Source of the DNA: Escherichia phage JLBYU10
Strand: one strand, 5' to 3'
Sequence record: OK272486.1
Length of the DNA: 50,987 bases
The notes under the pieces were generated by a model, which had not been told where the DNA came from, did no database searches, and saw only the letters and a program-made list of their open reading frames with translations. Position numbers and translations under genes: made by a program. The first letter of the stretch is position 1, and each line of letters opens with the position of its first letter. Below are positions 1,475 through 44,915 of the stretch, piece by piece.

Positions 1475-1518
1475 ATAGCATTTTTTGTTAAAACAGTTTA
1501 TTGTAATGAGTCTATTAT
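1475..1518 (+). promoter_or_regulatory. Motif-type promoter-like unit: ATAGCATTTTTTGTTAAAAC, 22-bp spacer, TATTAT
   Basis: Conserved motif copy in divergent intergenic region upstream of helicase gene; -10-like hexamer 22 bp after TTGTTA. Confidence 0.45.
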
Positions 1519-1550
1519 ATACTCCAAATGGCATTTTTTAAAGGTTTAAG

Positions 1551-3548
1551 ATGATTCCAAATATCGAAAAACAAATATCAGCGTTAGGCGAGGCAGTAAT
1601 AAAAAGCATCCAAGAGCGATTCACGGTTGGCAATATAGTGCCTTATCCTTATCAGTGCGTTGCGTATGCCGAGATCGCAAAGCGCATGAAAAACTATGAG
1701 CATCCTTTCTTTGTTAAGGCTTCTGTGTCGGCTGGCAAAACATTGATGTTTGCGATGGTTGCGGCGCAATGCCGAAAAATGGGATTGAAAATGATGGTCC
1801 TTGCTCGCCAGGCTGAAATTGTTGATCAGGATTCGGAAGAGATCAGCAATCTTGGAGTGCCAAACTCAATCTATTGCGCCGGACTGAAAACAAAAAGCGC
1901 ATACTTTCCGATCGTGGTCGGTTCTGAGGGCACTGTAGTAAACGGATTGTTTAAGTCGTTAGGTGATTATGTTCCGCACGTTATCGGTATTGATGAATGT
2001 CACCAGGTGGATTGGGAGGATCTCGCGGACGCGATAGAAAATAATGAATCTTACCAGCAGATGACCACTAAGAAGGATTTGCCTGTACTGATTGGAGAAG
2101 AACAGCAATTTGATTCCAATGGCGATCCAATGTTCGGAACAGGGCGCACACAGTACACCGTAATAATCATGGAAATGATGCGCAGGTGTCGCGAGGCATA
2201 CGGGCACGAATTGCGAATATTCGGTATGACTGGATCTGAGTTTCGCGGCGTGGTTCCAATACTGGTTGAAGATAAGAACAAAAAGGGATTCTGGCGTGAG
2301 CAGGTGACTAACATAGACACAAACTACTTAATCAAATTTGGTTCGGTAGTGCCAACAAATTTCGGCGACGTAGGCGACCTGGGGTATGACCTTTCAGAGT
2401 TCGAAGCCAGTAGCGAGGATGGCGTTTCAGACTTTGACGCTAAAACATTGCGCAAGATGGAAGAAAAGATCCATCAAGACGCAACAATGACACAGAAAAT
2501 CATGGCTAAAGTCCATGAGATATGCAAAGACAGGAACGGAGTTTTAGTTACATGCGCAGGGGAAAGGCACTGCAATGAGGCCGCCGCCGCACTGCCGCCA
2601 GGCGTTGAATACAGGATCATAACTGGCAAGACTGGAGATAATCAGCGTAAAGAGTGGCTGAGGGAGGCATACGAGGGAAAAGTAAAATACATCTTCCAGG
2701 TACAGGCGCTTACCACTGGCGTTAACGTTCCGTTTTGGGATACTTCGGTAATACTGAGAAAGATAGGATCTCTAACATTGCTTATCCAGCTTTTGGGGCG
2801 CGGCATGCGACTGCTTAAGCAATGGCACATTGAGCAGGGATTCAAGAAAAAAGATCATCTTGTATTGGATTTTGCAGGTACTATGGATGAGTTAGGTGAT
2901 TTGTATTTCGATCCAATCCTTGAGCAAGCGCAATTTCAAAAGAGATTTACAAACGGGAAAGAGCCTAAGACTTGCCCGATATGTGGAACGCTAAACAGCT
3001 TTTACGCTCGCCGATGTATGCAAGTAGACGATAACGGGAAGCGATGTGAGCATTTTTGGACTTACAGAATTTGCGAGGACCAGGTAGATCCGAGAACGAA
3101 AAAGATAATCAAGCGCGGCTGCGGAACAAAAAACGACGTAGTGGCGAGAGTATGCCGTTGTTGCGATATTTCTCTTATCGATCCTAACGAGAAGTTAAGC
3201 GGTAAGCACTACACCAAAAACGATTGGTGCAACGTTAAATCTTTCCGCGTTGATATGACGAAAAACCAGAAAGGAATTATTTTTTGCTATGAGCTTGAGG
3301 CCAACGGCGACACGTTCAAGGCATACGAAAGATTTTTCCCTGAGTCAGAAAGCAACATTTGCCGGACGATATGGAGAAAAATAGCATTGCAGCACATACC
3401 GGATCGCAAGATTGCTGGTATGGTGGCGAGCTATAGAAATGCTCGTAAAATAATGTCATACGCTCATCACATCATGCCGCCTGTACGCGTAACGCATCGC
3501 AAAAACGGCAAAGGTGAGGATAACATTGCAAAACGGGAGTTTGTTTAA
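1551..3548 (+). CDS. SF2 DNA helicase with C-terminal Cys-rich zinc-binding region
   Basis: Walker A-like SAGKT, motif II IDECH, helicase C-terminal-like region, multiple CxxC near C-terminus. Confidence 0.65.
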   Translation: MIPNIEKQISALGEAVIKSIQERFTVGNIVPYPYQCVAYAEIAKRMKNYEHPFFVKASVSAGKTLMFAMVAAQCRKMGLKMMVLARQAEIVDQDSEEISNLGVPNSIYCAGLKTKSAYFPIVVGSEGTVVNGLFKSLGDYVPHVIGIDECHQVDWEDLADAIENNESYQQMTTKKDLPVLIGEEQQFDSNGDPMFGTGRTQYTVIIMEMMRRCREAYGHELRIFGMTGSEFRGVVPILVEDKNKKGFWREQVTNIDTNYLIKFGSVVPTNFGDVGDLGYDLSEFEASSEDGVSDFDAKTLRKMEEKIHQDATMTQKIMAKVHEICKDRNGVLVTCAGERHCNEAAAALPPGVEYRIITGKTGDNQRKEWLREAYEGKVKYIFQVQALTTGVNVPFWDTSVILRKIGSLTLLIQLLGRGMRLLKQWHIEQGFKKKDHLVLDFAGTMDELGDLYFDPILEQAQFQKRFTNGKEPKTCPICGTLNSFYARRCMQVDDNGKRCEHFWTYRICEDQVDPRTKKIIKRGCGTKNDVVARVCRCCDISLIDPNEKLSGKHYTKNDWCNVKSFRVDMTKNQKGIIFCYELEANGDTFKAYERFFPESESNICRTIWRKIALQHIPDRKIAGMVASYRNARKIMSYAHHIMPPVRVTHRKNGKGEDNIAKREFV

Positions 3549-3967
3549 TGGCTATAACTGATAAAGGAGATTATCTTGAGTTTTACGAAAGAGATCCAAC
3601 CGACACGAGAAAGGAAGTTAATCACCAGATAGATAGCTTTCAGTGGTTGACTTATGCTCATCCTTATTTGCTAGCGTGGCATACGGTAAACGAGAATGAG
3701 AAGTCGAAAGTAACGGCGATGATTGATCAGCAGTCCGGCTTGGTTAAGGGGGTAAGCGATTTCATCATCCTGATTGGTTCAAACGGAAAATACCCCTTTG
3801 CAGCGATTGAGATCAAACGAGTGAATAAATCAGGCAAGGGGAAAGCATCACCAGTCAGCGATGAACAAAAGGCTTTTTTGCGTCGCGTTCGCAGCTTAGG
3901 AGGATTCGCTGCGGTCGCCTACGGATTTAATCAGTTTAAGTTAGCTATTGAATACATGCTTAAATAG
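3548..3967 (+). CDS. VRR-NUC domain nuclease
   Basis: ATGA start-stop overlap with helicase; SDFIIL...AIEIKR...DEQKAF...GG.AAVAYG pattern typical of VRR-NUC. Confidence 0.6.
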   Translation: MAITDKGDYLEFYERDPTDTRKEVNHQIDSFQWLTYAHPYLLAWHTVNENEKSKVTAMIDQQSGLVKGVSDFIILIGSNGKYPFAAIEIKRVNKSGKGKASPVSDEQKAFLRRVRSLGGFAAVAYGFNQFKLAIEYMLK

Positions 3968-4007
3968 CACTTTTTGTTAAAACTGGCGCGATGGATTGCG
4001 CCATAAT
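3964..4007 (+). promoter_or_regulatory. Motif-type promoter-like unit: ATAGCACTTTTTGTTAAAAC, hairpin in 22-bp spacer, CATAAT
   Basis: Motif overlaps TAG stop of VRR-NUC gene; GGCGC..GCGCC stem in spacer; -10-like hexamer at fixed distance. Confidence 0.5.
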
Positions 4008-4020
4008 TCAATAACACGAG

Positions 4021-4773
4021 ATGGCTTTTAATAGCGGAGAAATGAAAATGGCTAAAGATATTTTAGATAAAGACACCCATGACGCATTTGTTAGCTTTGA
4101 GCAGTTGGAGAGAGAAACGTTTATAGGAAATGCTCTTGCAACTGGAGGCCATTACCAGGCAGTAAAGCCAAATCAATATTATAAGGTAAGCGGCAACCGA
4201 TACGCTGGAAGCACTACGCCGGACGTTGTGCGCGATATGTGGAGCACACCTCAAGAGATCGTGGAGTGGATGGAATCAGAATTTGGCGAATACGATCTCG
4301 ACGCGGCAGCAAGCCAGGAAAACGCAGTTTGCGAGAAGTTCTATAGCAAGGAAACAAACTGCTTAAAGAGTTGGTGGGGTAGCAACAAGCACGTATGGCT
4401 TAACCCGCCGTACAGCAACCCAACTCCATTTATCAAGAAAGCAATTGAGCAAATGGAGCACAACAACCAAATTGATGTTTTGTTGCCATCCGACAACTCT
4501 ACAGCATGGTTTTATGAGGCGCAGCAAAACGCGGCTGAAATCATCTGGATCACTGGCGAGGTTTACGAAGAGGGGGGAGTGGAATATTCCCGCACCGGAA
4601 GAATCGCCTTTGTGTCTGGATTGACTGGCGAGCCTGTACAGGGCAACAATAAGGGAAGCGTGATTTTTGTCATGCGCAAACTTAAAGAAGGCGAGGAGCA
4701 GAAAACGCGATACGTTAAGATCAGCGATATTTGCCCCTCTGTAAACGAACGCCGCGCGCGCAAACGGAGCTAA
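4021..4773 (+). CDS. DNA N6-adenine methyltransferase (Dam-like, NPPY motif)
   Basis: WLNPPYSNP catalytic motif; alternative start at 4045 has better RBS. Confidence 0.65.
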   Translation: MAFNSGEMKMAKDILDKDTHDAFVSFEQLERETFIGNALATGGHYQAVKPNQYYKVSGNRYAGSTTPDVVRDMWSTPQEIVEWMESEFGEYDLDAAASQENAVCEKFYSKETNCLKSWWGSNKHVWLNPPYSNPTPFIKKAIEQMEHNNQIDVLLPSDNSTAWFYEAQQNAAEIIWITGEVYEEGGVEYSRTGRIAFVSGLTGEPVQGNNKGSVIFVMRKLKEGEEQKTRYVKISDICPSVNERRARKRS

Positions 4774-4777
4774 CACG

Positions 4778-5035
4778 ATGAAAAAAGAGAGAAGCGTTTA
4801 TTTAAATGAAACTGGCGAGTGGTTGTTATTTCGCGCTATGGTGTGCGATGCACTTGATAAAAACCCTAACGTGAAAAAGATGATTGATTGCGATCCGTGG
4901 GAATTTTCAAGCGCATTAGATATGAGCTTTGATGAGACAAGAAAACTCCCTCTTGAAAAATGGCACGAACAAATCAGAAATGATATGCAAGAGTTTGTAG
5001 ATTCGTGGAATTTTCAGAACGGAATGATCCACTAA
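4778..5035 (+). CDS. hypothetical protein
   Basis: ORF track; ACGGAG RBS; tightly packed. Confidence 0.45.
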   Translation: MKKERSVYLNETGEWLLFRAMVCDALDKNPNVKKMIDCDPWEFSSALDMSFDETRKLPLEKWHEQIRNDMQEFVDSWNFQNGMIH

Positions 5036-5078
5036 TGGCACTTTTTGTTAAAACGCCCGGCATTTTGTCGGGCATAAT
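5036..5078 (+). promoter_or_regulatory. Motif-type promoter-like unit: TGGCACTTTTTGTTAAAAC, hairpin GCCCGGC..CGGGC, CATAAT
   Basis: Motif immediately after TAA stop; 22-bp spacer with stem-loop; -10-like hexamer. Confidence 0.5.
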
Positions 5079-5104
5079 TATTTCATCGAAACGAACGTGA
5101 GGAA

Positions 5105-5290: not shown

Positions 5291-5522
5291 ACAAGGTAGA
5301 GAGGCGGTATGGAATCACGCTAAAGAATGCGGAATAGCCGACGATATAAAGAAGATCGCGCAATACTTTGATATTGCAGATGTGAGCATAATTAGCGGCG
5401 ACAAGATGACTTTCCTCAAGGAAAGGCCGCGAAAAATGGTAAGAGTTCCAGCAGTTCCAACAAAAATTGATTTCAAAGAGGCAATGGCTAAAATCCGAGA
5501 GCCTCGCAAATATTATAAATGA
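5280..5522 (+). CDS. hypothetical protein
   Basis: ORF 5259..5522 trimmed to Met overlapping upstream stop. Confidence 0.35.
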   Translation: MKVEQGREAVWNHAKECGIADDIKKIAQYFDIADVSIISGDKMTFLKERPRKMVRVPAVPTKIDFKEAMAKIREPRKYYK

Positions 5523-5616
5523 GGATAGTTATCATGTGGCGCTTGTTTGTTCTACCGTTACCCGTTATCATCGCTGTTACAGTTATGTACCATATAGTGA
5601 TGAGATAGGTAGCAGA

Positions 5617-6732
5617 ATGAAAAATGTAAAAATTACAGATGAGCAATTCAAGATCGAACGGGCGGCGGGTAAGACATATAAACAGATCGCTCAAGAGTAC
5701 GGAATGAATGTTAGAAGCGTCGAGCGTCGCGCGGCGCGTCTTGCAAAGCAAGGCCAGGTATCCACCATTGGAGCGCCTGGTTTTGGCGTTCATGGTGAGT
5801 CAGTAATGACTGACAAAGAAGGCAACATAATCCTAAAGTGGACTAAAACCAGCAAGGATAAAGAGCAATTAGAAGCATTAATGCGCGCAGCAATGGAGGC
5901 ATTTAGCGAGGAAGTGCCGCGATTAGATCCGGTTCCATTACAGGAGCGCGACTATAACGAAACGCTTTCCTTGTATCCGATCTTTGACATGCACTTAGGC
6001 GCTATGGCCCATAAGCACGAATGCGGCGAAAATTGGGATACTGCCACGGCAGAGCGCGTTATGAATAACTTTATCGACTATGCTTTAATGTGCGCACCGG
6101 ATAGCGAAAAGGCTGTCATCCTGATTGGTGGCGATATGCTGCATAGCGACGGCCTGGAGGCGGTTACACCTGCAAGCGGTCACGTACTGGATCAAGATAG
6201 TCGATATGCAAAATTGGTTTACGTTGCCATCCGTGCAATGCGACGCGCAATCAATAAAATGTTGTTAAAGCATAAACATGTTGAAGTCCAGATCGTAGAG
6301 GGAAATCATGACCAATCAGGAATGATTTGGCTGCGCGCAGCAATGGCGGCAGCATATGAAAACGAGCCGCGCGTTTACGTTGATGTTTCACCTCGCGTTG
6401 TGCACCACACGCAATACGGAAAAACTTTCCTTGCGTACCATCACGGGCACACAGTGCGTAAACCGGAGACTTTGCTAATGATGTGCGCGTCAGATTGGCG
6501 GGAGGACTTCGGAAACTCAAAAACGATGTATGCGCACGTAGGGCACTGGCATCACCAGACCGTGACAGAAACGTCGCTTGGCATCGTTGAGGTGCATAGC
6601 ACCCTGGCGGCAAAAGACGCATACGCCGCGCGCGGTGGCTGGAGATCTCGACGCCGTGCGGCGGTTATCATTTACGACAAAGAGCATGGAGAGGTGGGGA
6701 GATTTGTTCACTATCCAGAAATGATGAATTGA
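5617..6732 (+). CDS. calcineurin-like metallophosphoesterase with N-terminal HTH
   Basis: GDMLHSD and VEGNHD phosphoesterase-type motifs; N-terminal YKQIAQEYGMNVRSVERRAARL HTH-like; start chosen inside ORF 5467..6732. Confidence 0.45.
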   Translation: MKNVKITDEQFKIERAAGKTYKQIAQEYGMNVRSVERRAARLAKQGQVSTIGAPGFGVHGESVMTDKEGNIILKWTKTSKDKEQLEALMRAAMEAFSEEVPRLDPVPLQERDYNETLSLYPIFDMHLGAMAHKHECGENWDTATAERVMNNFIDYALMCAPDSEKAVILIGGDMLHSDGLEAVTPASGHVLDQDSRYAKLVYVAIRAMRRAINKMLLKHKHVEVQIVEGNHDQSGMIWLRAAMAAAYENEPRVYVDVSPRVVHHTQYGKTFLAYHHGHTVRKPETLLMMCASDWREDFGNSKTMYAHVGHWHHQTVTETSLGIVEVHSTLAAKDAYAARGGWRSRRRAAVIIYDKEHGEVGRFVHYPEMMN

Positions 6733-7094: not shown

Positions 7095-7588
7095 TGAGCA
7101 TAAAGAACAGGGTAGCGGCTGCGGCCTTTGGCGTTGCGGTTGCCTTGACTTCTCCACTTCTTGAAGAGATCGAAGGGGTAAGATACAAGCCATACAAAGA
7201 TATTGCGGGGGTATGGACGGTTTGCGCAGGAATCACCGGACCCGATGTTATCCTGGGGAAAACGTACACTAAAAAAGAGTGTGATGCTTTGTTGGCTAAG
7301 CATATCCAGGTTGCTAAAAAGGAAGTTGACAAGCAAGTTAAGGTTGACATTCCTGATAGTATGCGTGCAGCAATGTACTCATTCACTTACAATGCAGGTG
7401 TGGGAGCTTTCAGAAATTCAACAATGCTGAAACTCATCAATCAGGGGAAATTAAACGAGGCTTGCGATCAGCTTTATCGTTGGACTTATTACCATAACCC
7501 AAAAACAGGAAAGCGCGAGAAGTCTAAAGGCTTACTTAACAGGCGCAAGGTCGAATACAAATATTGCACAATGGATCTTAAATTATGA
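7094..7588 (+). CDS. endolysin, lysozyme-type with N-terminal signal-anchor-release (SAR) segment
   Basis: E...C/D...T catalytic spacing EG..YKPYKD..G.WT.C.GIT as in phage lysozymes; hydrophobic N-terminus [13 protein letters not shown]. Confidence 0.7.
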
Positions 7589-8216: not shown

Positions 8217-8253
8217 AATTTTTCCTTTTTGGTTGTTTCGTTTCGATGAAACA

Positions 8254-8297
8254 AATATACCCGACACTAGGCCGGGCGTTTTAACAAAAAATGCTAT
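8254..8297 (-). promoter_or_regulatory. Motif-type promoter-like unit (minus strand): ATAGCATTTTTTGTTAAAAC, 22-bp spacer, TATATT
   Basis: Reverse-complement motif overlapping TAG stop of upstream minus-strand ORF. Confidence 0.45.
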
Positions 8298-10387: not shown

Positions 10388-10415
10388 TCGTTAGCTTCTC
10401 CTTTGTGGGCCGTAA

Positions 10416-10459
10416 ATTTTAACGGCCCAATACTACCCCGTTTTGTCAAAAAGTGCTAT
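10416..10459 (-). promoter_or_regulatory. Motif-type promoter-like unit (minus): ATAGCACTTTTTGACAAAAC, hairpin GGGCCG..CGGCCC, TAAAAT
   Basis: Motif overlaps TAG stop of upstream gene; -10-like hexamer in hairpin loop 22 bp after TTGACA. Confidence 0.5.
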
Positions 10460-11060: not shown

Positions 11061-11089
11061 GATTAGATCTCCTTTGTTTGTTCGATGTG

Positions 11090-11133
11090 ATTATGCCAGG
11101 TTTTTACACCTGGCTTTTAACAAAAAGTGCTAT
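11090..11133 (-). promoter_or_regulatory. Motif-type promoter-like unit (minus): ATAGCACTTTTTGTTAAAAG, hairpin CCAGG..CCTGG, CATAAT
   Basis: Motif overlaps TAG stop of methyltransferase-like gene; fixed 22-bp spacer. Confidence 0.5.
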
Positions 11134-11870
11134 TTTGAATTTGACTCAAAGACGGCGCGAGCAAATCCGCGCGGAGTGAGGGAGCGTAGTTGCTTTGTTC
11201 TGGCAGACTTACCGCCTAAAAACTTCCAACCCCAAAAGAACATTACGCCATCATCATTGGATAACGGCTTGCGTTCCGGTTCGGTAAATCCGTTGCCGCA
11301 CCAGATAGCCGTCCTTTTAGTGTAGCCATCCTTTAGCGGCATTTTGGGGTGAAATGACCCATCGGATTCGTCCAAGTAGTTACCAAAATCGCGCGGATTG
11401 AAATAAAAATCCGGCTTGCGCCATAGCGTTGATAGTCGGCCTACCGGATTCTCAGCCATCCAGGGAACACCGAAATGATTTCCGACTTTTTCAACCATGA
11501 TTGCATTTTGGAGCGCGATATGAATATCGTCTTCGCTGCGCACATGCTTACTTCCTGATTGGGCGAACATGGTGCAGTCTGGAAAGCCAAATACAATATC
11601 AGGTTTTGGAATATCCATCTTAATGATGTTTTCAATGAAATTTTCATCAATCCACATATTCACATAATGCAGATTTTCATGCTTCATTTTGATGAAATAT
11701 TCTCCGTGATTGCCTTCGTCAGCGTTAAAGCAATAGCATTGATAACCAGCCTTCGCATATTCAAGCAACATGATTCCAGATCCATCAAACATTGAGTAAG
11801 CAACTTTATTTCCCATGATTTTTATGATACCCCAATTCATTCTCGGCTTTACGTTTTGCGGCAACAGCAT
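11130..11870 (-). CDS. DNA cytosine methyltransferase-like protein
   Basis: FDGSG (motif I-like), GFPDC (Pro-Cys-like), ENP motifs; start uncertain (overlaps HNH gene end). Confidence 0.5.
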   Translation of the reverse strand: MLLPQNVKPRMNWGIIKIMGNKVAYSMFDGSGIMLLEYAKAGYQCYCFNADEGNHGEYFIKMKHENLHYVNMWIDENFIENIIKMDIPKPDIVFGFPDCTMFAQSGSKHVRSEDDIHIALQNAIMVEKVGNHFGVPWMAENPVGRLSTLWRKPDFYFNPRDFGNYLDESDGSFHPKMPLKDGYTKRTAIWCGNGFTEPERKPLSNDDGVMFFWGWKFLGGKSARTKQLRSLTPRGFARAVFESNSK

Positions 11871-13748: not shown

Positions 13749-13779
13749 CTTTAAATCCTCGTTTGTTGTCGATGGGTGT

Positions 13780-13823
13780 AATATACCATTCAGGAGCACA
13801 TCGTTTTTAACAAAAAGTGCTAT
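13780..13823 (-). promoter_or_regulatory. Motif-type promoter-like unit (minus): ATAGCACTTTTTGTTAAAAA, 22-bp spacer, TATATT
   Basis: Motif overlaps TAG stop of upstream gene. Confidence 0.45.
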
Positions 13824-14110
13824 TCAACAACTTTTCCAGTTAAAGAGATAAGTTGCCTTGTAATCTTGTGGCGGCGATACTTACGCGCAACAACAGGAAG
13901 GCTTTCACCGCTTTGATGGCCAAAGCAGATCGGCAATTCACCTTCAAGGGAGCGGAAGCCACCAAATTCAAGATCCCGCACTGGCTTCGTGCGCCAGGCT
14001 TCAATAAATCCTCGCTCGTCACGAGTGATATAGCGGTATATGTTCGGGAGGGGCAATTGTATCCCCTCAAAATCCACGGTGTCGGTATAGCTATAAAACT
14101 TAGAACTCAT
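13820..14110 (-). CDS. hypothetical protein
   Basis: ORF 13820..14161 trimmed to Met coupled to upstream small ORF. Confidence 0.4.
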   Translation of the reverse strand: MSSKFYSYTDTVDFEGIQLPLPNIYRYITRDERGFIEAWRTKPVRDLEFGGFRSLEGELPICFGHQSGESLPVVARKYRRHKITRQLISLTGKVVE

Positions 14111-14252
14111 AGTCAACAACTCCAAACTCATTGACGATTTGGGCCTTGTAGAAGCCGCCATTTTTCGCCAGGTTGTAACAAGCGGCTACGGTTTCAAATT
14201 CGCGCGCTTCCGGCTGGCTGTTTTCGTGTTCCCAGGTAATCAGAGTAACCAT
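14100..14252 (-). CDS. small hypothetical protein (50 aa), not in ORF track
   Basis: Hand translation MVTLITWEHENSQPEAREFETVAACYNLAKNGGFYKAQIVNEFGVVDYEF; GAGGA RBS. Confidence 0.3.
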   Translation of the reverse strand: MVTLITWEHENSQPEAREFETVAACYNLAKNGGFYKAQIVNEFGVVDYEF

Positions 14253-14285
14253 TTTAAAATCCTCGCATTCGTTGTCGATGCGTGT

Positions 14286-14329
14286 AATGTACAGGAATGC
14301 GAGGATTGAGTTTTAACAAAAAGTGCTAT
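14286..14329 (-). promoter_or_regulatory. Motif-type promoter-like unit (minus): ATAGCACTTTTTGTTAAAAC, 22-bp spacer, TACATT, 10-bp inverted repeat CCTCGCATTC/GAATGCGAGG around it
   Basis: Motif adjacent to TAA stop of upstream gene; long stem flanks the -10-like hexamer. Confidence 0.45.
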
Positions 14330-15555: not shown

Positions 15556-15589
15556 TGCTATCTCCTGAGCGGTTCGTTTTGATGTGTGT

Positions 15590-15633
15590 AATGTACCCGA
15601 TCAGACGGCCTGAGTTTTAACAAAAAGTGCTAT
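15590..15633 (-). promoter_or_regulatory. Motif-type promoter-like unit (minus): ATAGCACTTTTTGTTAAAAC, 22-bp spacer, TACATT
   Basis: Only motif copy heading the leftward gene block; not preceded by a gene. Confidence 0.5.
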
Positions 15634-16172: not shown

Positions 16173-16201
16173 TTGACACATTAAATAGCATTATTGATAA
16201 T
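16173..16201 (+). promoter_or_regulatory. sigma70-type promoter (TTGACA, 17 bp, GATAAT)
   Basis: Canonical hexamers with 17-bp spacer ~30 bp upstream of first rightward early gene. Confidence 0.6.
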
Positions 16202-16230
16202 GCCGACACCTAACAACCAGGAGGTAGAAA

Positions 16231-16695
16231 ATGAGCGAGCAATCATTCACTGACACGCTGCGCCGTGCCGCTATTATGCTGGCTAATGGCGAGGAAGAGA
16301 CGATCAAGATTCCTGACGCGTATTTGCAGGTCCACATGTTCGGCAAGAAGTCGGCAAGCAATCCGGCGGCCTACATTCGCCAGATCATGAGTCGAGTGCC
16401 AGAAGTCGCCGAGCGGGGGAGCGTATCCGTTACCCGTGGCGTTTACGGGCCGGAAGATGAAAACTTCGGTAGCACTTTCTACGAGGTGCGCATTGTTGAA
16501 GGCCGTCGCAAGGTTTACAACAAAGATGCACTGGAAAGGGCAGTACGCCAGGCTAAGCGCAAGGTTGCAGAGGCGATCATTGATATGTCACCAAACCTGG
16601 CAAACTATGCGCCGGAAGAGTATGAAACATTATCAAAGGCCGTCGCTGACTTTCACGCGATGATCAAAAAAACTTTCCTGGAGGATGAGCAATGA
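16231..16695 (+). CDS. hypothetical early protein
   Basis: ORF track; AGGAGG RBS; first gene after strong promoter. Confidence 0.55.
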   Translation: MSEQSFTDTLRRAAIMLANGEEETIKIPDAYLQVHMFGKKSASNPAAYIRQIMSRVPEVAERGSVSVTRGVYGPEDENFGSTFYEVRIVEGRRKVYNKDALERAVRQAKRKVAEAIIDMSPNLANYAPEEYETLSKAVADFHAMIKKTFLEDEQ

Positions 16696-16964
16696 AAAAG
16701 GCGTTAATCGGCGTTTTGGTGGCAATGGCATTCCTGACCGGATGCGAAGAAGATGGCGCGCATGTTGGCAATGTGCAGATGGCTAACCCTGGCGATGACT
16801 ACAGCGTAAGGGAGCTATTCACCGCCGATGGTTGCACTGTTTACCGATTCTATGACGGTCGCACTGTTTACTTCACCAACTGCAAGGGAACGACTAGCTG
16901 GGAAGTGTCGAAAAGCAACGGCAAAGGCACGAAAACAGAATACATGACCGTTGAGACAAAATAG
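16692..16964 (+). CDS. lipoprotein (possible superinfection-exclusion type)
   Basis: Signal peptide with lipobox FLTGC; ATGA overlap with upstream gene. Confidence 0.5.
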   Translation: MKKALIGVLVAMAFLTGCEEDGAHVGNVQMANPGDDYSVRELFTADGCTVYRFYDGRTVYFTNCKGTTSWEVSKSNGKGTKTEYMTVETK

Positions 16965-17003
16965 CACTTTTTGTTAAAACTCAAATGTGGGGCCAGGTAT
17001 AAT
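16961..17003 (+). promoter_or_regulatory. Motif-type promoter-like unit: ATAGCACTTTTTGTTAAAAC, hairpin GGGCC..GGCCC, TATAAT
   Basis: Motif overlaps TAG stop of lipoprotein gene; TATAAT in hairpin loop 21 bp after TTGTTA. Confidence 0.5.
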
Positions 17004-17033
17004 GGCCCTACTTTCAACGAAGGAGATAAAACG

Positions 17034-18217: not shown

Positions 18218-18375
18218 CTTGGTTGCTTTTAATCTTTGTCACAAGTTACAACTCCGCAGCTATTGAGTCGCAGGAGTTCCACGGCGAATCAAGATGCCAG
18301 GAAGCGCGAAAGCAAGTTGTTCTCCACATGTCAGATAGTGGTAAGGATGTAACAGCGTTATGCGTTCGTAAATAG
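18214..18375 (+). CDS. small hypothetical protein (53 aa), not in ORF track
   Basis: Hand translation MTWLLLIFVTSYNSAAIESQEF...; ATGA overlap upstream; TAG stop embedded in motif. Confidence 0.3.
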   Translation: MTWLLLIFVTSYNSAAIESQEFHGESRCQEARKQVVLHMSDSGKDVTALCVRK

Positions 18376-18415
18376 CACTTTTTGCAAAAACAGATTATCG
18401 GGCTTGCGGTATAGT
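18372..18415 (+). promoter_or_regulatory. Motif-type promoter-like unit: ATAGCACTTTTTGCAAAAAC, hairpin GGGCTT..AAGCCC, TATAGT
   Basis: Motif overlaps TAG stop; -10-like hexamer in hairpin loop, 22-bp spacer. Confidence 0.5.
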
Positions 18416-18446
18416 AAGCCCATAAACAACAAACGAGGATTAAATC

Positions 18447-19696: not shown

Positions 19697-19736
19697 CACG
19701 AATTGCTAAACGCGGGGTTATCGGCCCCGCTATAAT
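19693..19736 (+). promoter_or_regulatory. Motif-type promoter-like unit (degenerate motif ATAGCACGAATTGCTAAAC), hairpin GCGGGG..CCCCGC, TATAAT
   Basis: Motif overlaps TAG stop of kinase gene; 22-bp spacer. Confidence 0.45.
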
Positions 19737-19766
19737 GCGCACATCAACAATCAAGAGGAAATCACA

Positions 19767-20987: not shown

Positions 20988-21030
20988 TAGCACTTTTTGT
21001 TAAAACTTCCGCAAGGGCATTTGGTAAAGT
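20987..21030 (+). promoter_or_regulatory. Motif-type promoter-like unit: ATAGCACTTTTTGTTAAAAC, hairpin AAGGGCA..TGCCCTT, TAAAGT
   Basis: Motif abuts TAA stop; -10-like hexamer inside hairpin, 22-bp spacer. Confidence 0.45.
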
Positions 21031-21062
21031 GCCCTTATTGAAGCGAAACAGAGGAAAGCGCA

Positions 21063-29829: not shown

Positions 29830-29848
29830 CGTTTAACAAAAAGTGCTA
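29830..29848 (-). repeat. motif copy in inverted orientation (GTTTAACAAAAAGTGCTAT) upstream of capsid gene
   Basis: Reverse complement of motif inside a rightward operon, next to a terminator. Confidence 0.45.
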
Positions 29849-29853
29849 TCATC

Positions 29854-29895: not shown

Positions 29896-30867
29896 ATGGC
29901 TAAAAAATATGATGAACTAGATGCTACGATTGTAGCGAATCATTTGCAGATTCAGGGTGTCAAGACCGACGCTTCTGATATGGGTATTTGGACCGCTCAA
30001 GAGCTACACAAGATCCGCTCTACCGCATACGAGAAAGAGTATCCGGCAGGTTCCGCGCTTCGCGTATTCCCCGTAACAAACGAGCTTTCTGATACTGACA
30101 AGACTTTCGAGTATCAGACTTTTGATAAGGTTGGCTACGCGAAAATTATCGCAGACTACACCGATGATCTGCCAACTGTGGACGCGCTGATGACTTCTGA
30201 GTTTGGCAAAGTGTTCCGCCTGGGTAACGCTTTCCTGATCTCAATTGACGAAATCAAAGCAGGTCAGCGAACTGGTAAAAGCCTTTCTACTCGCAAGGCT
30301 AACGCAGCGCAGAATGCACATGATCAGCTTATTAACTTCCTGGTTTTCAAAGGTTCCAAGCCTCATAAGATCGTTTCCGTTTTCGATCATCCAAACCTGA
30401 CTAAAATCACGTCAAAAGGATGGCTGAGTAACGACGGAAACACCAAGTTTCCAGAAGTTGCAAGCGATGAACTGGAGGCCGCAATCGAAACGATCGAGGA
30501 AGTAACAAAAGGCCAGCACCGCGCGACTAACATCCTGATCCCGCCGTCCATGCGCAAAGTCCTGACGGTTCGAATGGAAAATACCACTGAAAGTTATCTG
30601 GAATACTTCCAGAAGCAAAACGGCGGTATCACTATCGACTCTATCGCAGAGCTTGAGGATATTGACGGCAAAGGTACGAAAGGTTGCTTGGTTTACGAAA
30701 AAGATCCAATGAACATGAGCATTGAGATTCCAGAAGCGTTTAACATGCTTCCGGCGCAGCCAAAAGACCTTCACTTAAAGGTTCCTTGCACTTCCAAGTG
30801 TACTGGCCTTACGATTTACCGTCCGTTTACGATGGTGCTTATTACTGGCTTGAAAAAGTCAGCTTAA
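29896..30867 (+). CDS. major capsid protein
   Basis: 323 aa ORF with strong GGAGGAAGC RBS, flanked by terminators, downstream of scaffold. Confidence 0.65.
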   Translation: MAKKYDELDATIVANHLQIQGVKTDASDMGIWTAQELHKIRSTAYEKEYPAGSALRVFPVTNELSDTDKTFEYQTFDKVGYAKIIADYTDDLPTVDALMTSEFGKVFRLGNAFLISIDEIKAGQRTGKSLSTRKANAAQNAHDQLINFLVFKGSKPHKIVSVFDHPNLTKITSKGWLSNDGNTKFPEVASDELEAAIETIEEVTKGQHRATNILIPPSMRKVLTVRMENTTESYLEYFQKQNGGITIDSIAELEDIDGKGTKGCLVYEKDPMNMSIEIPEAFNMLPAQPKDLHLKVPCTSKCTGLTIYRPFTMVLITGLKKSA

Positions 30868-32853: not shown

Positions 32854-33516
32854 ATGCACTTGCCTAATGGTTCTCAAATTTTCATCGGCGTTAATATGGG
32901 TGAGCCAATTAGCGCGACTCAAATCAGCAATGCTGATAATCCTGTTTTTACAACCGAAAACACTCAAAGCATCAAAAAAGGCGCTTATGTTCTTATTGAA
33001 ACATCTTCTTGGGGCAAACTTGTTAGTCGAGTGCTTCGAGTTAAGGAAGTATCAGATAATGTAAGTGTTACTCTTGAGGGTGTTAGCACTAAAGATACAA
33101 ACGTATTTCCAGAAGGACAGAACACAGCAACCTTCCGAGAAGTAAAATCATGGGTAGAGATTCCTTGCGTGCAGGATCTTGCGCAGGACGGCGGCGAGCA
33201 ACAGTATTACACTTATCAGTGTTTGGCTGACGACCAGGAGCAGCAGTTACCGACCTATAAGAGCGCCGTTTCTCTTACCTACACTTTCGCGCATGAATAT
33301 GATAACCCGATTTATCCGATCTTGCGCGAGGCTGAGGAATCCGGCGACGTAACAGCTTTGCGTATGTACGTGCCGAAAGCTAAAGAGATGCGTTGCTGGG
33401 CTGGCGTATTGTCTTTTAATGACATTCCGCAAACAACTATGAACGAAATGGAAACTGTTTCCCTTTCTGTATCTCTGAAAGTCCGATTCACGTTCTTACC
33501 TTCCGACGTTAAGTAA
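32854..33516 (+). CDS. major tail protein
   Basis: 220 aa; followed by terminator then chaperone/tape measure genes. Confidence 0.55.
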   Translation: MHLPNGSQIFIGVNMGEPISATQISNADNPVFTTENTQSIKKGAYVLIETSSWGKLVSRVLRVKEVSDNVSVTLEGVSTKDTNVFPEGQNTATFREVKSWVEIPCVQDLAQDGGEQQYYTYQCLADDQEQQLPTYKSAVSLTYTFAHEYDNPIYPILREAEESGDVTALRMYVPKAKEMRCWAGVLSFNDIPQTTMNEMETVSLSVSLKVRFTFLPSDVK

Positions 33517-33543
33517 AACAAGGGGCGTTGCGCCCCTTTTTTC
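33517..33543 (+). terminator. rho-independent terminator after major tail gene
   Basis: GGGGCG-TTG-CGCCCC stem followed by T-run. Confidence 0.6.
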
Positions 33544-33581
33544 ATTCCTGTAAAATCAATCTATCAAATAAATTAATTCCA

Positions 33582-33601
33582 CTTTTAACAAAAAGTGCTA
33601 T
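33582..33601 (-). repeat. motif copy in inverted orientation (CTTTTAACAAAAAGTGCTAT) abutting RBS of chaperone gene
   Basis: Reverse complement of motif followed immediately by AAGGAG and ATG at 33616. Confidence 0.45.
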
Positions 33602-39456: not shown

Positions 39457-39500
39457 ATAGCACAATATGTTAAAGCGAAAACGGATTTTCGCTTTACAAT
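39457..39500 (+). promoter_or_regulatory. Motif-type promoter-like unit (ATAGCACAATATGTTAAAG), hairpin GCGAAAA..TTTTCGC, TACAAT
   Basis: Motif adjacent to TAA stop of I-like gene; precedes HNH gene inserted in tail module. Confidence 0.45.
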
Positions 39501-39517
39501 TAATTAAGGAGGTGATC

Positions 39518-39994
39518 ATGTGGCGTGATATTTTTTATTATAATGACGGTAAGTTATTTTGGGCTGTAGACGTAGGAAGAAGGATAAAGAAAGGAAGTGA
39601 GGCAGGAAGCGTAAGCAAAAGCAAGAAGAGTGGAGAAAGGGTTAGAATATCAATTGATGGAGAAAGATACTACAGGAGCAGGATAGTTTGGGAAATTCAT
39701 AATGGAGAAATACCGCATGGAATGCAAGTTGATCACATAGATCACAACACAATGAACGACAATATTTCAAACTTAAGACTTGTTAGAATGAGTGTTAACA
39801 ACAAGAATAAGTCGCTTTACAGGAACAGCAAGACGGGAATTACTGGGGTAAACTTTAGTCGCGGAAAATGGATTGCAAGAGCAAAGATTGATGGTGTTAG
39901 GCATGAATTTTACTTTGATTCATTTCAGGATGCGGCAGAAAAGAGGATAGAGATTGAAGTTTTAAACAAATTCCACATAAACCACGGAAAGTAG
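39518..39994 (+). CDS. HNH homing endonuclease (paralog of 11806..12333)
   Basis: ORF 39467..39994 trimmed to Met with AAGGAGG RBS; VDHIDHNTMNDN HNH signature; shared C-terminal ...HGK. Confidence 0.65.
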   Translation: MWRDIFYYNDGKLFWAVDVGRRIKKGSEAGSVSKSKKSGERVRISIDGERYYRSRIVWEIHNGEIPHGMQVDHIDHNTMNDNISNLRLVRMSVNNKNKSLYRNSKTGITGVNFSRGKWIARAKIDGVRHEFYFDSFQDAAEKRIEIEVLNKFHINHGK

Positions 39995-40023: not shown

Positions 40024-40071
40024 TGCATTTATAATGTGCAAACCAAGAAACAGCACAAAAGGTTAAAAGTC

Positions 40072-43000
40072 ATGGCTAAATATATGATAAGCGGCAGTAA
40101 GGGCGGAAGCAAAAAGCCATACGTGCCAAAAGAGATGGAAGATAACCTGATCTCGATAAACAAGATTAAAGTTTTGCTGGCTGTATCTGATGGCGAGTGC
40201 GATCCAGATTTCACGTTGCGTGATCTTTATCTTGATGATGTTCCGGTTATTGCCAGCGATGGCACTGTTAACTATGAGGGGGTAACGGCTGAATATAGAC
40301 CAGGCACACAGACGCAAGATTACATCCAGGGGTTTACTGACACATCAAGCGAGGTGACAGTTTCGCGAGACATTACAACAGACAATCCCTATATTATCTC
40401 TGTGACAAACAAAAATCTTTCTGCAATAAGAATCAAGATTCTGATGCCAGTTGGCATAAAACAGGAGGATAACGGCGATCTTGTTGGCGTAAGGGTTGAG
40501 TATGCCGTAGATATGGCTATTGATGGCGGTTCTTATAGCGAGGTTATGAGAGATGTAATTGACGGCAAGACAAGATCAGGATACGACCGCAGCAGAAGGA
40601 TTGATCTTCCTAAGTTTGATGAGCGCGTTTTAATCCGAGTAAAGCGACTGACTCCAGACAGCACATCTTCAAAGGTGACTGATAAAATCAAGCTGCAAAG
40701 TTACGCTGAGGTTGTTGATGCAAAATTCCGTTATCCTCTGACTGGCCTTGTATTCGTAGAATTTGACAGCGAATTGTTTCCTACGCAAATCCCTAACATT
40801 TCTATAAAAAAGAAATGGAAGATTATTAATGTGCCAAGCAACTATGATCCAATATCAAGAGAATATCACGGGTCATGGGATGGGACTTTTAAAAAAGCGT
40901 GGTCAAATAATCCCGCTTGGGTTCTTTATGATCTGGTGACAAATCAGCGTTATGGACTTGATCAGCGAGAGTTAGGAATACAGATCGACAAGTGGAGCTT
41001 ATACGAGGCGGGCGTTTACTGTGATCAGAAAGTTCCAGACGGTAAGGGCGGTACAGAGCCTCGCTACCTATGCGATGTAGTTATCCAGAATCAGGTTGAG
41101 GCTTATCAGCTAATCCGTGACATTTGCTCAATCTTTCGCGGAATGAGCTTTTGGAATGGTGAGAGCTTATCAATCGTGATTGATAAGCCGCGCGATCCAT
41201 CATACGTGTTTACTAATGAAAACGTCATCAACGGTGATTTTCAGTACACAACCGCAAGCGAAAAAAGCATGTACACGCAATGTAATGTGACGTTTGACGA
41301 CGAACAAAACATGTATCAACAGGACGTCGAGGGGGTTTTTGATACTGAGGCGGCATTACGATTTGGATACAATCCAACAAGCATTACAGCGATCGGATGT
41401 ACACGCAGGAGTGAAGCGAATCGTCGCGGTCGGTGGGTTTTGAAAACAAACCTTAGAAGCACTACTGTAAACTTTGCTACCGGACTAGAGGGGATGATTC
41501 CATCCATAGGTGATGTGATTGCTATCGCTGATAATTTTCAGAGCAGCAATCTAACGTTAAATCTTTCGGGCCGAGTAATGGAAGTTTCAGGCTTGCAAGT
41601 TTTCGTTCCGTTTAAAGTTGATGCGCGTCCTGGTGATTTTATTATCATCAATAAGCCGGACGGCAAGCCAGTTAAGCGAACGATCTCAAAGGTGAGCGCA
41701 GACGGAAAAACCATTGAGTTAAATATTGGCTTTGGTTTTGATGTTAAGCCTGATACTGTTTTTGCGATTGACCGTACTGACCTTGCGTTGCAGCAATACG
41801 TTGTGACAACTATCAGCAAGGGTGATGACGAAAACGAGTTTACCTATTCAATCACGGCTGTAGAGTACGATCCGAACAAATACGACGAGATTGATTATGG
41901 AGTAAACATTGATGACAGGCCAACTTCAATTGTTCAGCCTGACGTGATGGCAGCGCCTGAGAACGTGCAGATCTCATCTTATTCTCGCGTCGTGCAGGGC
42001 GTCAGCGTTGAAACTATGGTTGTGTCGTGGGAAAAAGTGCCTTATGCGTCACTGTATGAAATGCAATGGCGAAAAGGTGATGGCAACTGGCTGAATACGC
42101 CGCAGACAGCTAACAAAGAGATAGAGGTAGAAGGAATTTATTCTGGTAACTACCAAGTAAGGGTTAGATCTGTTTCTGCAAGCGGTAACACTTCCCCGTG
42201 GTCAAAGATTGCAACCGCAACCCTGACAGGTAAAGTTGGCGAGCCAGGAGCGCCGATTAATCTTACAGCTTCTGATAATGAAGTTTTTGGCATTCGTGTC
42301 AAATGGGGTATGCCGGAAGGATCAGGCGATACGGCTTACATTGAGCTTCACCAATCGCCAGACGGAACGGTTGAAAACTCAAGCCTGCTTACGCTGATTC
42401 CATATCCTCAATATGAGTATTGGCATAGCACGTTACCAGCGGGTCAAGTTGTATGGTATAGAATCCGTAGCGTTGACAGGATCGGCAACGTTTCCGGCTG
42501 GACTGACTTTGTTCGCGGCATGGCGTCAGATGATGTTGAATCTGTTTTAGGCGACATTCTGGACAAGATTTTTGATACCGAAGCGGGTCAAGAAATCAAA
42601 GAGAACGCCATAGACAGTGCAAACAAAATCAAAGACCAGGCGCAATCAATCATCCAGAACGCATTGGCAAACGATGCTGATGTGAAGTGGACGCGAGTAC
42701 AAAACGGAAAGCGTAAGGCTGAATATGGTCATGCACTGGAGCTTATTGCTACCGAAACGGAGGCGCGAGTAACTCAAATCGAAGAGTTAAAGGCGTCAAT
42801 TGATGAAGATATAGTTTCAAGTATCAAAACCGTTCAGGAAGCGATTGCCAACGAATCAGAGACGCGAGCTACTCAAGTGCAGCAACTTGATTCTAAATTT
42901 ACGAAGGAAATAGACGGCGTAAAACAAGATACGGCTGCAAGCATTGGCGAGGTAAGGCAAACCATTACCAATGAATCAGAAGCGCGTGCGCAAGCCGTTC

Positions 43001-43680: not shown

Positions 43681-44292
43681 ATCATAGTGTGATGAATTTA
43701 TAACCAAAACAGATGAAGCCGTGTAAATACCAACAGGACCAGAAGTTTGTGCAACCTGCCTAGATAAAGAATATACCCCGTTGCCATACGCGGCAGCTTG
43801 AGACTCAAATATCATGAATCCACCTAAAGACGGATTACGCACAGAGTTTAAAGCTGTTAGTGACGGCATGATGGCGCAAGGGTATCCCAAGTTAACGTCA
43901 AAAGTGATCCCGCTTACAGATACAAGTTTTGCATCTAAAGGCTTCATCTTTCCATGATAAACCATCTCACCATTAGCATTATAAAAAGCTATTCCGTGAC
44001 TGCCAGGAGGAGTAACCATATTGCTAAAAGCATAAACAAATACCTCACCTTGATTGTCGGACTTTTCTATCTTTATTGCGTGCTTCCCACCATTATTAAA
44101 TTGAGTAAATGCTATGTATGATTTTGATGTTAACCTTACAAAAAAGAAGCACGGTCTATTTATTGGTATAGAAGTATTAAAAACGGTTCCTGTTTTTGCT
44201 GATATTTTACCTTTATCTATAAGGTTAACAGGAGTGAAATCTGGACTTAACCACAATGATCCGTCTGGTTTTTTTATGCTCATCCCGTACAT
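43678..44292 (-). CDS. putative receptor-binding protein
   Basis: ORF 43678..44304 trimmed to Met with GGGGG RBS; leftward locus directly after J-like gene, co-transcribed with lipoprotein. Confidence 0.35.
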   Translation of the reverse strand: MYGMSIKKPDGSLWLSPDFTPVNLIDKGKISAKTGTVFNTSIPINRPCFFFVRLTSKSYIAFTQFNNGGKHAIKIEKSDNQGEVFVYAFSNMVTPPGSHGIAFYNANGEMVYHGKMKPLDAKLVSVSGITFDVNLGYPCAIMPSLTALNSVRNPSLGGFMIFESQAAAYGNGVYSLSRQVAQTSGPVGIYTASSVLVINSSHYD

Positions 44293-44294
44293 TA

Positions 44295-44573
44295 TTACCC
44301 CCAAAAAGTATATATATATCTTGAGTCAGATCCAGAAAGTCCGCTCCATGTAACGGTATCACCACTTACACCTAAACTTGGAGCGCCAGGATCTCCTCCG
44401 CGCCACGAATTCATTCCAACATATATTGCTTTCAACGACTTACCTGGCGGCCTGTTTGAGTAGGTCTTACTGCCAGATGATTGAGTAAATTTATCCAAGA
44501 AAAAAACTGGAGTTAAAAGGCCAGTAACATTTCTACCTTGCTCATCATATATTGCATACCCATATTCAGCCAT
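44295..44573 (-). CDS. hypothetical protein in receptor-binding locus
   Basis: ORF track; GAGGTG RBS. Confidence 0.4.
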   Translation of the reverse strand: MAEYGYAIYDEQGRNVTGLLTPVFFLDKFTQSSGSKTYSNRPPGKSLKAIYVGMNSWRGGDPGAPSLGVSGDTVTWSGLSGSDSRYIYTFWG

Positions 44574-44841
44574 TTTTGCACCTCAAATCAATGAATTTTC
44601 TTTCATCTTGCCAACGGTTGATAAATTTAACTTCTTTATTGTCAACGCTCAACCTGTATTGCTTTTGGCTGAATCTGTTTTCGCGTACCGCATTAATTTT
44701 AACTTCATGGAATCCGTTAACAGGGAATGTTTTAACGTTAAATTTTGCCGTGCAATCGATCTCCTTGAAGTTGCCAGTAGGCGAAGAAGAACATCCGGTC
44801 AGGGCGGCTACGGTGGCGATAACTGCGATTAATTTTTTCAT
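44566..44841 (-). CDS. lipoprotein (Cor/Llp-like superinfection exclusion candidate)
   Basis: ORF 44566..44847 trimmed to ATG; signal peptide with lipobox ALTGCSS; AAGGGG RBS. Confidence 0.5.
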   Translation of the reverse strand: MKKLIAVIATVAALTGCSSSPTGNFKEIDCTAKFNVKTFPVNGFHEVKINAVRENRFSQKQYRLSVDNKEVKFINRWQDERKFIDLRCKNG

Positions 44842-44872
44842 CTTCAATACCCCTTAGTTGTTGTTGGCTGTA

Positions 44873-44915
44873 ACTATACACGATCCGGCAAGCCGAGTTT
44901 AGCAAAAAGTGCTAC
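44873..44915 (-). promoter_or_regulatory. Motif-type promoter-like unit (minus): GTAGCACTTTTTGCTAAAC, 21-bp spacer, TATAGT
   Basis: Reverse-complement motif heading leftward lipoprotein/receptor-binding operon. Confidence 0.5.

Follow-up and report, generated by a model that had tools for sequence, protein, structure and literature searches.

Introduction

T1 is a classic T phage, yet the transcription of its genes is still unclear, and a short sequence repeated through the intergenic gaps of a T1-like genome raises the question of what kind of element it is and what reads it. The genome is that of Escherichia phage JLBYU10 (record OK272486.1), a T1-like siphophage of the Drexlerviridae that is Warwickvirus-like and close to Shigella phage JK16; the whole stretch of 50,987 nucleotides is referred to here as the window. 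Its repeat is a 20-bp motif, ATAGCACTTTTTGTTAAAAC, followed at a nearly fixed distance by a hexamer of the −10 type. A first, sequence-only reading of this DNA took the TTGTTA within the motif to be "−35-like" and judged the 21–22 bp that separate it from the hexamer to be unusable by ordinary −35/−10 recognition, a judgement that we share. The answer that we reach is that, by its sequence and position, the T1-family repeat is a marbox, a site of the MarA/SoxS/Rob type (RamA in Klebsiella) in a micF-like class II position, and that each unit of motif and hexamer is likely to be a sigma70 promoter of the class II Mar/Sox/Rob type, to which a separate layer of hairpins has been added.

The repeat itself was known already. 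The sequence-only reading recognized no described element in it, but it was described in phage TLS in 2024 with its function unassigned: TLS carries a 21-nt direct repeat, aaATAGCACnnnTTGnTAAAA, in 18 intergenic copies that run along the direction of transcription about 76 nt before start codons, T1, Rtp and Rogue1 are said to have it too, and the authors suggest stoperators, enhancer sites or UP elements while listing the function of the repeat as an unanswered question (PMC11447400). The same re-annotation is reported to contain only three sigma70-like promoters for the whole of TLS. In sequence, orientation and distance to start codons the TLS repeat and the window motif are the same element; the accessible text of the TLS paper mentions neither a −10 hexamer at a fixed distance nor a marbox identity. 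What appears to be new is the identification of the long-noted T1-family repeat as a class II marbox, and within the library that could be searched we found no paper linking the two. A literature search for transcription start site or RNA sequencing data on T1-like phages returned nothing usable.

A Repeat at a Fixed Distance from a −10 Hexamer

The motif occurs in the window 14 times at three mismatches or fewer, against 0.01 expected from shuffled sequences, and looser scans bring the total to 20; the repeat that the sequence-only reading had put at about 19 copies is thus real and slightly more numerous. The copies occupy short intergenic gaps, often adjoining the preceding stop codon. In 16 of the 20, a YAnnnT hexamer starts at motif position 38–39, which is 21–22 bp after TTGTTA: position 39, which is 22 bp after TTGnTA, is the rule, and position 38, at 21 bp, is found at 16961 and 44896. 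When 57 motif copies from the window, TLS and T1 were pooled, the hexamer started at position 39 in 45, at 38 in four and at 40 in one, and the same rigid spacing is found in Rtp, KP36 and AKS96. Each of the 15 units that had been proposed is present and has its YAnnnT hexamer, and a sixteenth, on the minus strand at 33582, had been overlooked. In all 16 units the motif shares its strand with the −10 and with the gene that follows, as had been noticed for the early and middle blocks. Among the matches listed in a motif scan of viral contigs, multi-copy matches occurred only in T1-like contigs of 40–52 kb, and matches elsewhere were single.

The annotation of AKS96 (7280–7320 and 22079–22113) contains promoters labelled "similar to TTGACA(N23)TATAAT" and "(N29)". 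Promoter-like sites with long spacers have therefore been noticed before in Rogunavirus records, where they stand unexplained.

The surroundings of the hexamer support the view that the units are promoters, as far as sequence can speak to it. Lined up on the hexamer, 45 units of the window, TLS and T1 show invariant A−11 and T−7 (45/45) and a hexamer of the form TAnnnT or CAnnnT; AAAACn occupies the −35 position, a C stands at −1, and 84% of the units have an A at +1. Downstream, the order is C(−1)A(+1), a CA-rich leader, CATCGAAACGAA, a Shine-Dalgarno sequence and, about 20–30 nt later, the start codon. Canonical −35/−10 pairs, for their part, are no commoner than in shuffled sequence.

The leader, which spans about +1 to +12 and is predicted to be unstructured, also follows the canonical recE promoter of T1 (T1 30340–30375; CATCG..AACGA). 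It is therefore a module of its own, perhaps one that serves translation or stability.

The Repeat as a Class II Marbox

A consensus for MarA binding obtained by chromatin immunoprecipitation, 5′-GCAnnWWnTGnnAAA-3′, was derived independently of any phage data (PMC12052159). The phage motif agrees with it at every specified position in both of its classes, GCACTTTTTGTTAAA and GCACGAATTGCTAAA, and all 18 perfect matches to it in the window, where 1.5 are expected, are copies of the motif. The classic marbox consensus is the 20-mer AYnGCACnnWnnRYYAAAYn, which at one mismatch or fewer finds 17 sites in the window. Of the marboxes of E. coli K-12, that of micF, ACAGCACTGAATGTCAAAAC, is identical to the phage motif at 15 of 20 positions and that of marRAB, ATGCCACGTTTTGCTAAATC on the reverse strand, at 15–16. 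The marbox of the units has the GCAC of the RE1/A site and the YAAA of the RE2/B site, with 7 bp of A/T-rich DNA between them. Nor is this confined to the window: six Drexlerviridae representing five lineages, with hosts in E. coli, Shigella and Klebsiella, have 13–20 perfect marboxes each against about 0.5 expected, and a Vibrio myophage with a related helicase has two.

The position of the marbox is as telling as its sequence. A class II site is a marbox in forward orientation that overlaps the −35 (PMC12052159), and class II soxboxes and RamA sites are centred at about −41 (PMC9638938; PMC8811837). In the units the 20-mer spans −50 to −31, with GCAC at −47 to −44 and TAAA at −36 to −33, and is separated from the −10 hexamer by 18 bp in 14 units and by 17 bp in two. 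In E. coli micF, 18 bp likewise lie between the 20-mer and the −10 TAGAAT, and the G of GCAC stands 35 nt before the hexamer, distances identical to those in the phage units. The orientation, too, is that of micF: the consensus is read on the non-template strand, and AAA lies nearer to the −10 than GCAC does. The units therefore have the sequence and geometry features of a class II Mar/Sox/Rob promoter: a 20-bp marbox, forward orientation, a centre near −41, and a −10 with a weak or absent −35.

It is here that the structural work on Rob becomes relevant. In the cryo-electron microscopy structure of Rob, RNA polymerase and the micF promoter, Rob contacts −47G and −45A of the non-template strand and holds region 4 of sigma70 off the −35, so that the activator replaces that contact (PMC9178005). 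In the logo of the 45 phage units, G4, C5, A6 and C7 fall at −47 to −44, and conservation reaches about 2 bits at G4, C5, A6 and G13, which indicates reading by a protein in the major groove. The TTGTTA that the sequence-only reading took to be −35-like is consequently not a misplaced −35 but the TG and YY part of a 20-bp marbox at the class II position, and the rigid "too long" spacer of 21–22 bp is accounted for by the geometry that joins activator and polymerase.

Phage units and promoters such as micF are thus alike in their asymmetric, forward marbox, with GCAC and YAAA 7 bp apart, in its centre near −41 overlapping the −35, in the 18 bp to a sigma70 −10 and in having no good −35. They differ in that the phage sites are nearly identical, close to consensus and packed at 13–20 per 50 kb of a virulent phage genome, whereas host sites are degenerate, and in that each phage unit combines a conserved leader with a G+C hairpin that lies in the spacer or about it, activator binding to the units being a prediction. 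Under the proposed mechanism, a monomeric host activator (Rob, MarA or SoxS in E. coli, and also RamA in Klebsiella) would bind the marbox of a unit, substitute for the −35 contact and recruit RNA polymerase through the C-terminal domain of its alpha subunit and region 4 of sigma70, as at micF. Some 16 promoters of this phage would then probably borrow a host activator.

Host Activator or Phage Protein

To the sequence-only reading the units looked like a phage-specific promoter class, or else a protein-binding or RNA-processing element. That they are promoters fits what we find; the evidence does not require a phage factor. Experimental support, of an indirect kind, comes from T1, whose upstream regions were cloned before gfp by Laganenka et al. 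(PMC6737242). When their primers are mapped, the Porf65 fragment comprises T1 4335–4435, a stretch of 101 bp that opens with 9 nt and the motif, continues with spacer, TATGAT and leader, and closes with 15 nt of coding sequence, and it therefore amounts to exactly one unit. In uninfected E. coli W3110 this fragment is reported to work as a promoter whose activity does not depend on Pir and is increased by Orf65 (PMC6737242), which argues that no phage-specific factor is required.

The alternative that survives best is nonetheless a phage-encoded protein with marbox-like specificity, which would activate the units once a few canonical promoters had served an immediate-early phase; Pir, the DUF7174 product and the T1p16 homologue, which bears a helix-turn-helix, are the candidates. 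A few canonical sigma70 promoters of the required kind do exist in the window. One is the pir promoter, TTTAAA-17-TATAAT (1514–1542, minus), and another, TTGACA-17-GATAAT (16173–16201, plus), has no marbox and precedes the first rightward early gene, which encodes a DUF7174 protein of 154 amino acids (16231–16695; 16173–16695 with its promoter) and stands under a canonical promoter rather than a unit in all six Drexlerviridae examined. A third contrast case, TTGACT-16-TACAAT (45286–45313, plus), precedes recE; the recE promoter of T1 is canonical as well (TTGACT-17-TATAAT, followed by the leader as in the units), as is the pir promoter of T1. The T1 dam construct, which by primer mapping contains a unit, is reported to be activated by Pir, just as Orf65 activates its own unit (PMC6737242). 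Furthermore, a reverse-complement marbox lies in the pir 5′ untranslated region, adjoining the pir Shine-Dalgarno sequence, which would fit autoregulation; T1 pir is reported to be repressed by Pir itself, by Orf65 and by cyclic AMP–CRP.

Set against this are the activity reported for the one-unit Porf65 fragment without phage protein or Pir, and what is found for each candidate. Orf65 has no homologue in the window, and as a universal factor it was rejected. Pir is conserved, but its versions are only about 58% identical across phages while the motif is nearly invariant. The DUF7174 protein, for which the database search gave only two homologues, is modelled by AlphaFold as an alpha/beta N-terminal domain with long C-terminal helices (mean predicted confidence, pLDDT, of 76), and Foldseek against the PDB returned no match for this model at E ≤ 0.001, and none to the AraC-type folds of MarA and Rob; it was set aside as an AraC-type reader. 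No phage-encoded MarA, SoxS or Rob came to light either: searches with phmmer and with a three-sequence profile, using hand-entered query sequences, gave nothing below E = 0.09 in the six-frame open reading frames of the window, T1, TLS, Rtp and KP36. If a phage protein were the reader, moreover, the exact agreement with the host marbox consensus, and with the geometry of micF as well, would be a coincidence without explanation, and for these reasons we consider this reading improbable.

The T1p16 homologue is an SbcD-like phosphoesterase/exonuclease (window 5467–6732, plus; KP36 40948–42078) whose N-terminal helix-turn-helix matches the Pfam family Sigma70_r4_2, at 26.6 bits in KP36, just over the cut-off, and at 18 bits in the window. 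This match counts among the points in favour of a phage reader.

A host activator remains the reading that we prefer. The near invariance of the motif over five diverged lineages, with hosts in three genera, fits a conserved host reader, and on sequence grounds the use of host Rob, MarA or SoxS is the simplest reading.

Could the Units Fire Alone?

The sequence-only reading also stated that no extended −10 is present, which is partly wrong: G−14 is found in 37 of the 45 aligned units (82%) and T−15 in 22 (49%), although the full TGn occurs in only four of the 16 window units. These features invite a second alternative, in which the units are constitutive extended −10 promoters used by sigma70 holoenzyme alone, the upstream block being an RNA polymerase contact (UP-like or a displaced −35) or mainly a recombination sequence. 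The activity of a one-unit fragment in uninfected cells (PMC6737242, as reported) is what this would predict; the indels between the window and JK16 that are bounded by units, described below, suit a recombination sequence, and reverse-oriented copies have TTGTTA 17 bp from TAnnnT, where it can be a true −35. Against it stand the scarcity of the full TGn, the misfit of the block to the UP-element consensus, its displacement by 5 bp from the register of a −35, the protein-like conservation at G4, C5, A6 and G13, and a match to the marbox in sequence, orientation and distance that is far beyond chance. Taken together, these points leave it with little probability.

Several other identities for the upstream block were considered and rejected. 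UP elements are A/T tracts at −59 to −38 read in the minor groove by the C-terminal domain of the alpha subunit; the block lies at −50 to −31, contains invariant G and C, and does not fit the UP consensus. The sigma54 consensus is TGGCAC-N5-TTGC, with GG and GC 10 bp apart and an enhancer-binding ATPase; in the units, the TAGCAC-N3-TTGC elements are 2 bp too close, and the −10 hexamer and A+1 would be left unexplained. Consensus sites for Fis, IHF, CRP and DnaA gave no fit in a comparison by eye. The middle promoters of T4, which depend on MotA and AsiA, resemble the units in pairing a good −10, often with TGn, with an activator-read upstream box that replaces the −35, but the MotA box is in the wrong position, being centred at about −30 and served by phage proteins, where the box of the units is centred near −41 and matches a host activator site.

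Several observations weigh against dependence on a host activator. The link from the units to MarA, SoxS and Rob is one of sequence and geometry. Motif position 19 is an A where the classic consensus has Y, four of the copies (25206+, 29830−, 40050+ and 50900+) lack class II geometry, and class II marbox promoters are not otherwise known to have hairpins in their spacers. Unstressed cells contain little MarA or SoxS. Most Rob is sequestered, and inactive, unless an inducer is present (PMC2787020), and total dependence on such activators would consequently be a risk for a virulent phage whose plating on laboratory strains is good. The activation that this family gives can also be modest, about twofold in the case of RamA (PMC8811837). 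It may be that G−14 or TGn lets many units fire without an activator, the marbox being only a modulator. Finally, we know of no report of rob, mar or sox mutants that resist T1, which is absence of evidence only.

Hairpins in and around the Spacer

The sequence-only reading was right that the spacers tend to hold hairpins. In 81 units from five phages, positions −31 to +18 form more stable folds than shuffled sequence does, with a mean z of −2.3 and z below −2 in 47. Two layouts recur: in one the whole stem fits within the 18-bp gap, in some cases with a U-rich −10 region after it and a terminator score or annotation (as in the annotations of T1 and KP36); in the other the stem surrounds the −10, which sits in the loop. 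Within one subfamily of ten members, pairing holds in 95.5% of cells and seven of 11 pairs have changed on both sides; the score obtained is reached by none of 500 shuffles and collapses in slid controls. The hairpin sequences vary between units while the linear motif is constant.

What the hairpins do is a separate matter from what the marbox does. One mechanism that had been suggested, distortion of the DNA by the hairpin, would have to shorten the spacer, which is unlikely: extrusion of the stem as a cruciform would take up nearly the whole 22-bp spacer, and the covariation includes G-U pairs on the sense strand, which points to a structure that works in RNA. A MerR-like spacer operator was rejected in turn, the inverted repeats differing in sequence from unit to unit. 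Because most of each arm precedes the start site of the unit itself, the structure must matter in read-through RNA from the upstream gene, and it is on such RNA that the hairpins probably act. There a hairpin could serve as a leaky terminator or a 3′-end stabilizer, which would make each unit a compact terminator–promoter joint. In a simple terminator scan, two of the 16 window units pass, and most hairpins are without a U-tract.

Stoperators, known from mycobacteriophage L5, are asymmetric sites inside transcription units at which a phage-encoded repressor blocks elongation, and both the fixed distance to the −10 and the reporter activity of the units argue against that comparison. The broader idea that the element works only at the level of RNA or as a roadblock (as a signal for processing, termination or antitermination, or as a repressor site of the stoperator kind) can draw on the covarying sense-strand hairpins, on the two terminator-like units and on the stoperator suggestion reported from the TLS authors (PMC11447400), but we regard it as very improbable, given that A−11 and T−7 never vary and keep a fixed distance, that C(−1)A(+1) is conserved as well, that fragments made of units are reported to drive gfp (PMC6737242), that it is the hairpins and not the linear motif that vary, and that the motif stands at a fixed distance before a −10 and not inside transcription units.

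Units as Probable Cassette Joints

The window is about 97% identical to phages such as tonijn, vB_EcoS-95 and JLBYU19 across most of its first 25 kb. With Shigella phage JK16 (Warwickvirus, Tempevirinae), whose record begins at the same base, it shares 99.5% identity in the helicase. In the single pair compared, window versus JK16 over the first 25 kb, three of the indel junctions fall exactly on units. An extra window gene at 13825–14248 lies between the units at 13804 and 14310, both of which align to one JK16 unit; in JK16, in turn, 1.8 kb that the window lacks separates two units, which meet in the window at unit 16961 (16959–16985); and unit 11114 lies within a 120-bp island of homology to JK16 (11068–11186). 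Duplicated units bound these indels, so individual genes seem to come and go together with a unit, as gene-plus-unit cassettes, and the units would thus double as recombination joints.

A comparable arrangement has been reported in T4-type phages, where promoter-early stem-loop (PeSL) cassettes were reportedly described by Arbiol, Comeau, Krisch and colleagues in 2010. These are also short, repeated intergenic combinations of promoter and stem-loop among small early genes that serve as joints for gene shuffling, and the units share with them the character of repeated promoter and stem-loop cassettes bounding indels, here in one pair of genomes. The PeSL promoters, however, are said to be ordinary strong sigma70 early promoters with efficient terminators, whereas the units are of the activator-site type and most of their hairpins have no U-tract.

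The Units and Other Sites of the Window

The 15 sites listed in the sequence-only reading were all recovered, most at the very base given there. On the plus strand, the leftmost unit (1475–1525; marbox 1475–1494, −10 TATTAT 1513–1518, predicted start about 1525) precedes the helicase gene. The unit before dam (3964–4014) has its marbox at 3964–3983, a spacer hairpin with arms TGGCGC and GCGCCA, the −10 CATAAT at 4002–4007 and a predicted start at about 4014, and the next (5035–5085) has an ATGGCAC variant of the marbox at 5035–5054, a terminator-like hairpin at 5055–5073, CATAAT at 5073–5078 and a predicted start at about 5085.

The helicase unit and the canonical pir promoter overlap face to face (1464–1550) and share their −10 region, a layout that is the same in T1.

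Six units then point leftward, on the minus strand. The first (8247–8297; marbox 8278–8297) has a terminator-like hairpin at 8259–8277, TATATT at 8254–8259 and a predicted start at about 8247. The unit before the DUF3987 ATPase gene (10409–10459) combines a TTGACA variant of the marbox at 10440–10459 with TAAAAT at 10416–10421 in the hairpin loop. The unit in the JK16-homology island (11083–11133; marbox 11114–11133) has a hairpin with arms CCAGGT and ACCTGG and a TGG before CATAAT at 11090–11095. The cassette that JK16 lacks is flanked on its left by the unit at 13773–13823 (marbox 13804–13823, TGG with TATATT at 13780–13785) and on its right by that at 14279–14329 (marbox 14310–14329, TACATT at 14286–14291), in which a long hairpin pairs the spacer with the Shine-Dalgarno region. 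The sixth (15583–15633; marbox 15614–15633, TACATT 15590–15595) heads the leftward early block.

Rightward again, the unit at the exact junction of the 1.8-kb indel (16961–17010; marbox 16961–16980) has TATAAT at 16998–17003, 17 bp after the 20-mer, in a hairpin loop; that at 18372–18422 (marbox 18372–18391, a TTGCAA variant) has TATAGT at 18410–18415, also in a hairpin loop; that at 19693–19743 belongs to the GAA subclass, ATAGCACGAATTGCTAAAC, which matches the classic 20-mer consensus in full, with TATAAT at 19731–19736; and that at 20987–21037 (marbox 20987–21006) has TGG with TAAAGT at 21025–21030 in the loop of a covarying hairpin. Two further units lie towards the right end: a degenerate one, ATAGCACAATATGTTAAAGC, before the open reading frame 39467–39994 (39457–39507, plus; TACAAT 39495–39500), and one on the minus strand before leftward genes that include a cor-like gene (44866–44915; marbox 44896–44915, beginning GTAGCAC, and TATAGT 44873–44878, 17 bp after the 20-mer). 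From 10409–10459 on, the units described so far have predicted starts near 10409, 11083, 13773, 14279, 15583, 17010, 18422, 19743, 21037, 39507 and 44866.

The previously overlooked unit stands within the tail-gene block (33515–33601, minus). Its marbox (33582–33601) is followed by TGA with TAGATT (33558–33563) and then by a bidirectional terminator (33520–33538), so that, with a predicted start near 33551, it opposes the tail genes and runs directly into a terminator; T1 has an equivalent layout at 18832 (minus). This unit is a candidate gene for an RNA of about 35–40 nt, and an Rfam scan of the window, including 33515–33601, gave no family at threshold.

The four copies without a class II −10 are of different kinds. 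One, before the portal gene (25206–25225, plus), is followed by a terminator (25237–25258). Between the decoration-protein and major-capsid genes a copy lies in reverse orientation (29830–29849, minus), with TTGTTA, 17 bp and TATGCT; it is conserved in T1 (15068, minus) and TLS (15024, minus), where TTGTTA is again followed after 17 bp by TATGCT or TATGTT. With this ordinary sigma70 spacing it would be an antisense promoter against the late genes, one that a marbox-bound activator would be expected to occlude. A degenerate marbox-like copy at the start of the tail-fibre gene (40050–40068, plus) is found in TLS and T1 as well, and the last, ATAGCACTTTTTGCTAATGA, also degenerate, was found by the looser scans at the end of the window (50900–50919, plus).

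GenBank has about 20 records under the name "Campylobacter phage" (A13a, with C. jejuni as host, is one) that are T1-like genomes, with a helicase 85% identical to that of the window. They may be contaminants or carry mislabelled hosts.

Implications for T1-like Phages

The class II marbox reading offers a concrete and testable answer to the question left standing over the repeat of the T1-like phages, and it accounts for the 22-bp spacing. How far its consequences reach is more tentative. It is possible, though we are inclined to doubt it, that the Drexlerviridae have handed nearly all early and middle promoter recognition to host Mar/Sox/Rob (RamA), in which case their expression would be tuned by gut signals such as bile salts, fatty acids, antibiotics and oxidative stress, and the 15–20 consensus marboxes of each genome, multiplied by replication, would soak up the activators and blunt the efflux and stress response of the host. 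The class II marbox reading itself, if true, would provide a rare example of a virulent phage that has put nearly all of its early programme under a host stress regulon. Inducers of mar, sox and rob (salicylate, bile and some antibiotics), as well as clinical marR or ramR mutations, could then alter the efficacy of T1-like therapeutic phages, the Klebsiella weberviruses included, and the units themselves would be compact, portable, activator-responsive promoters.

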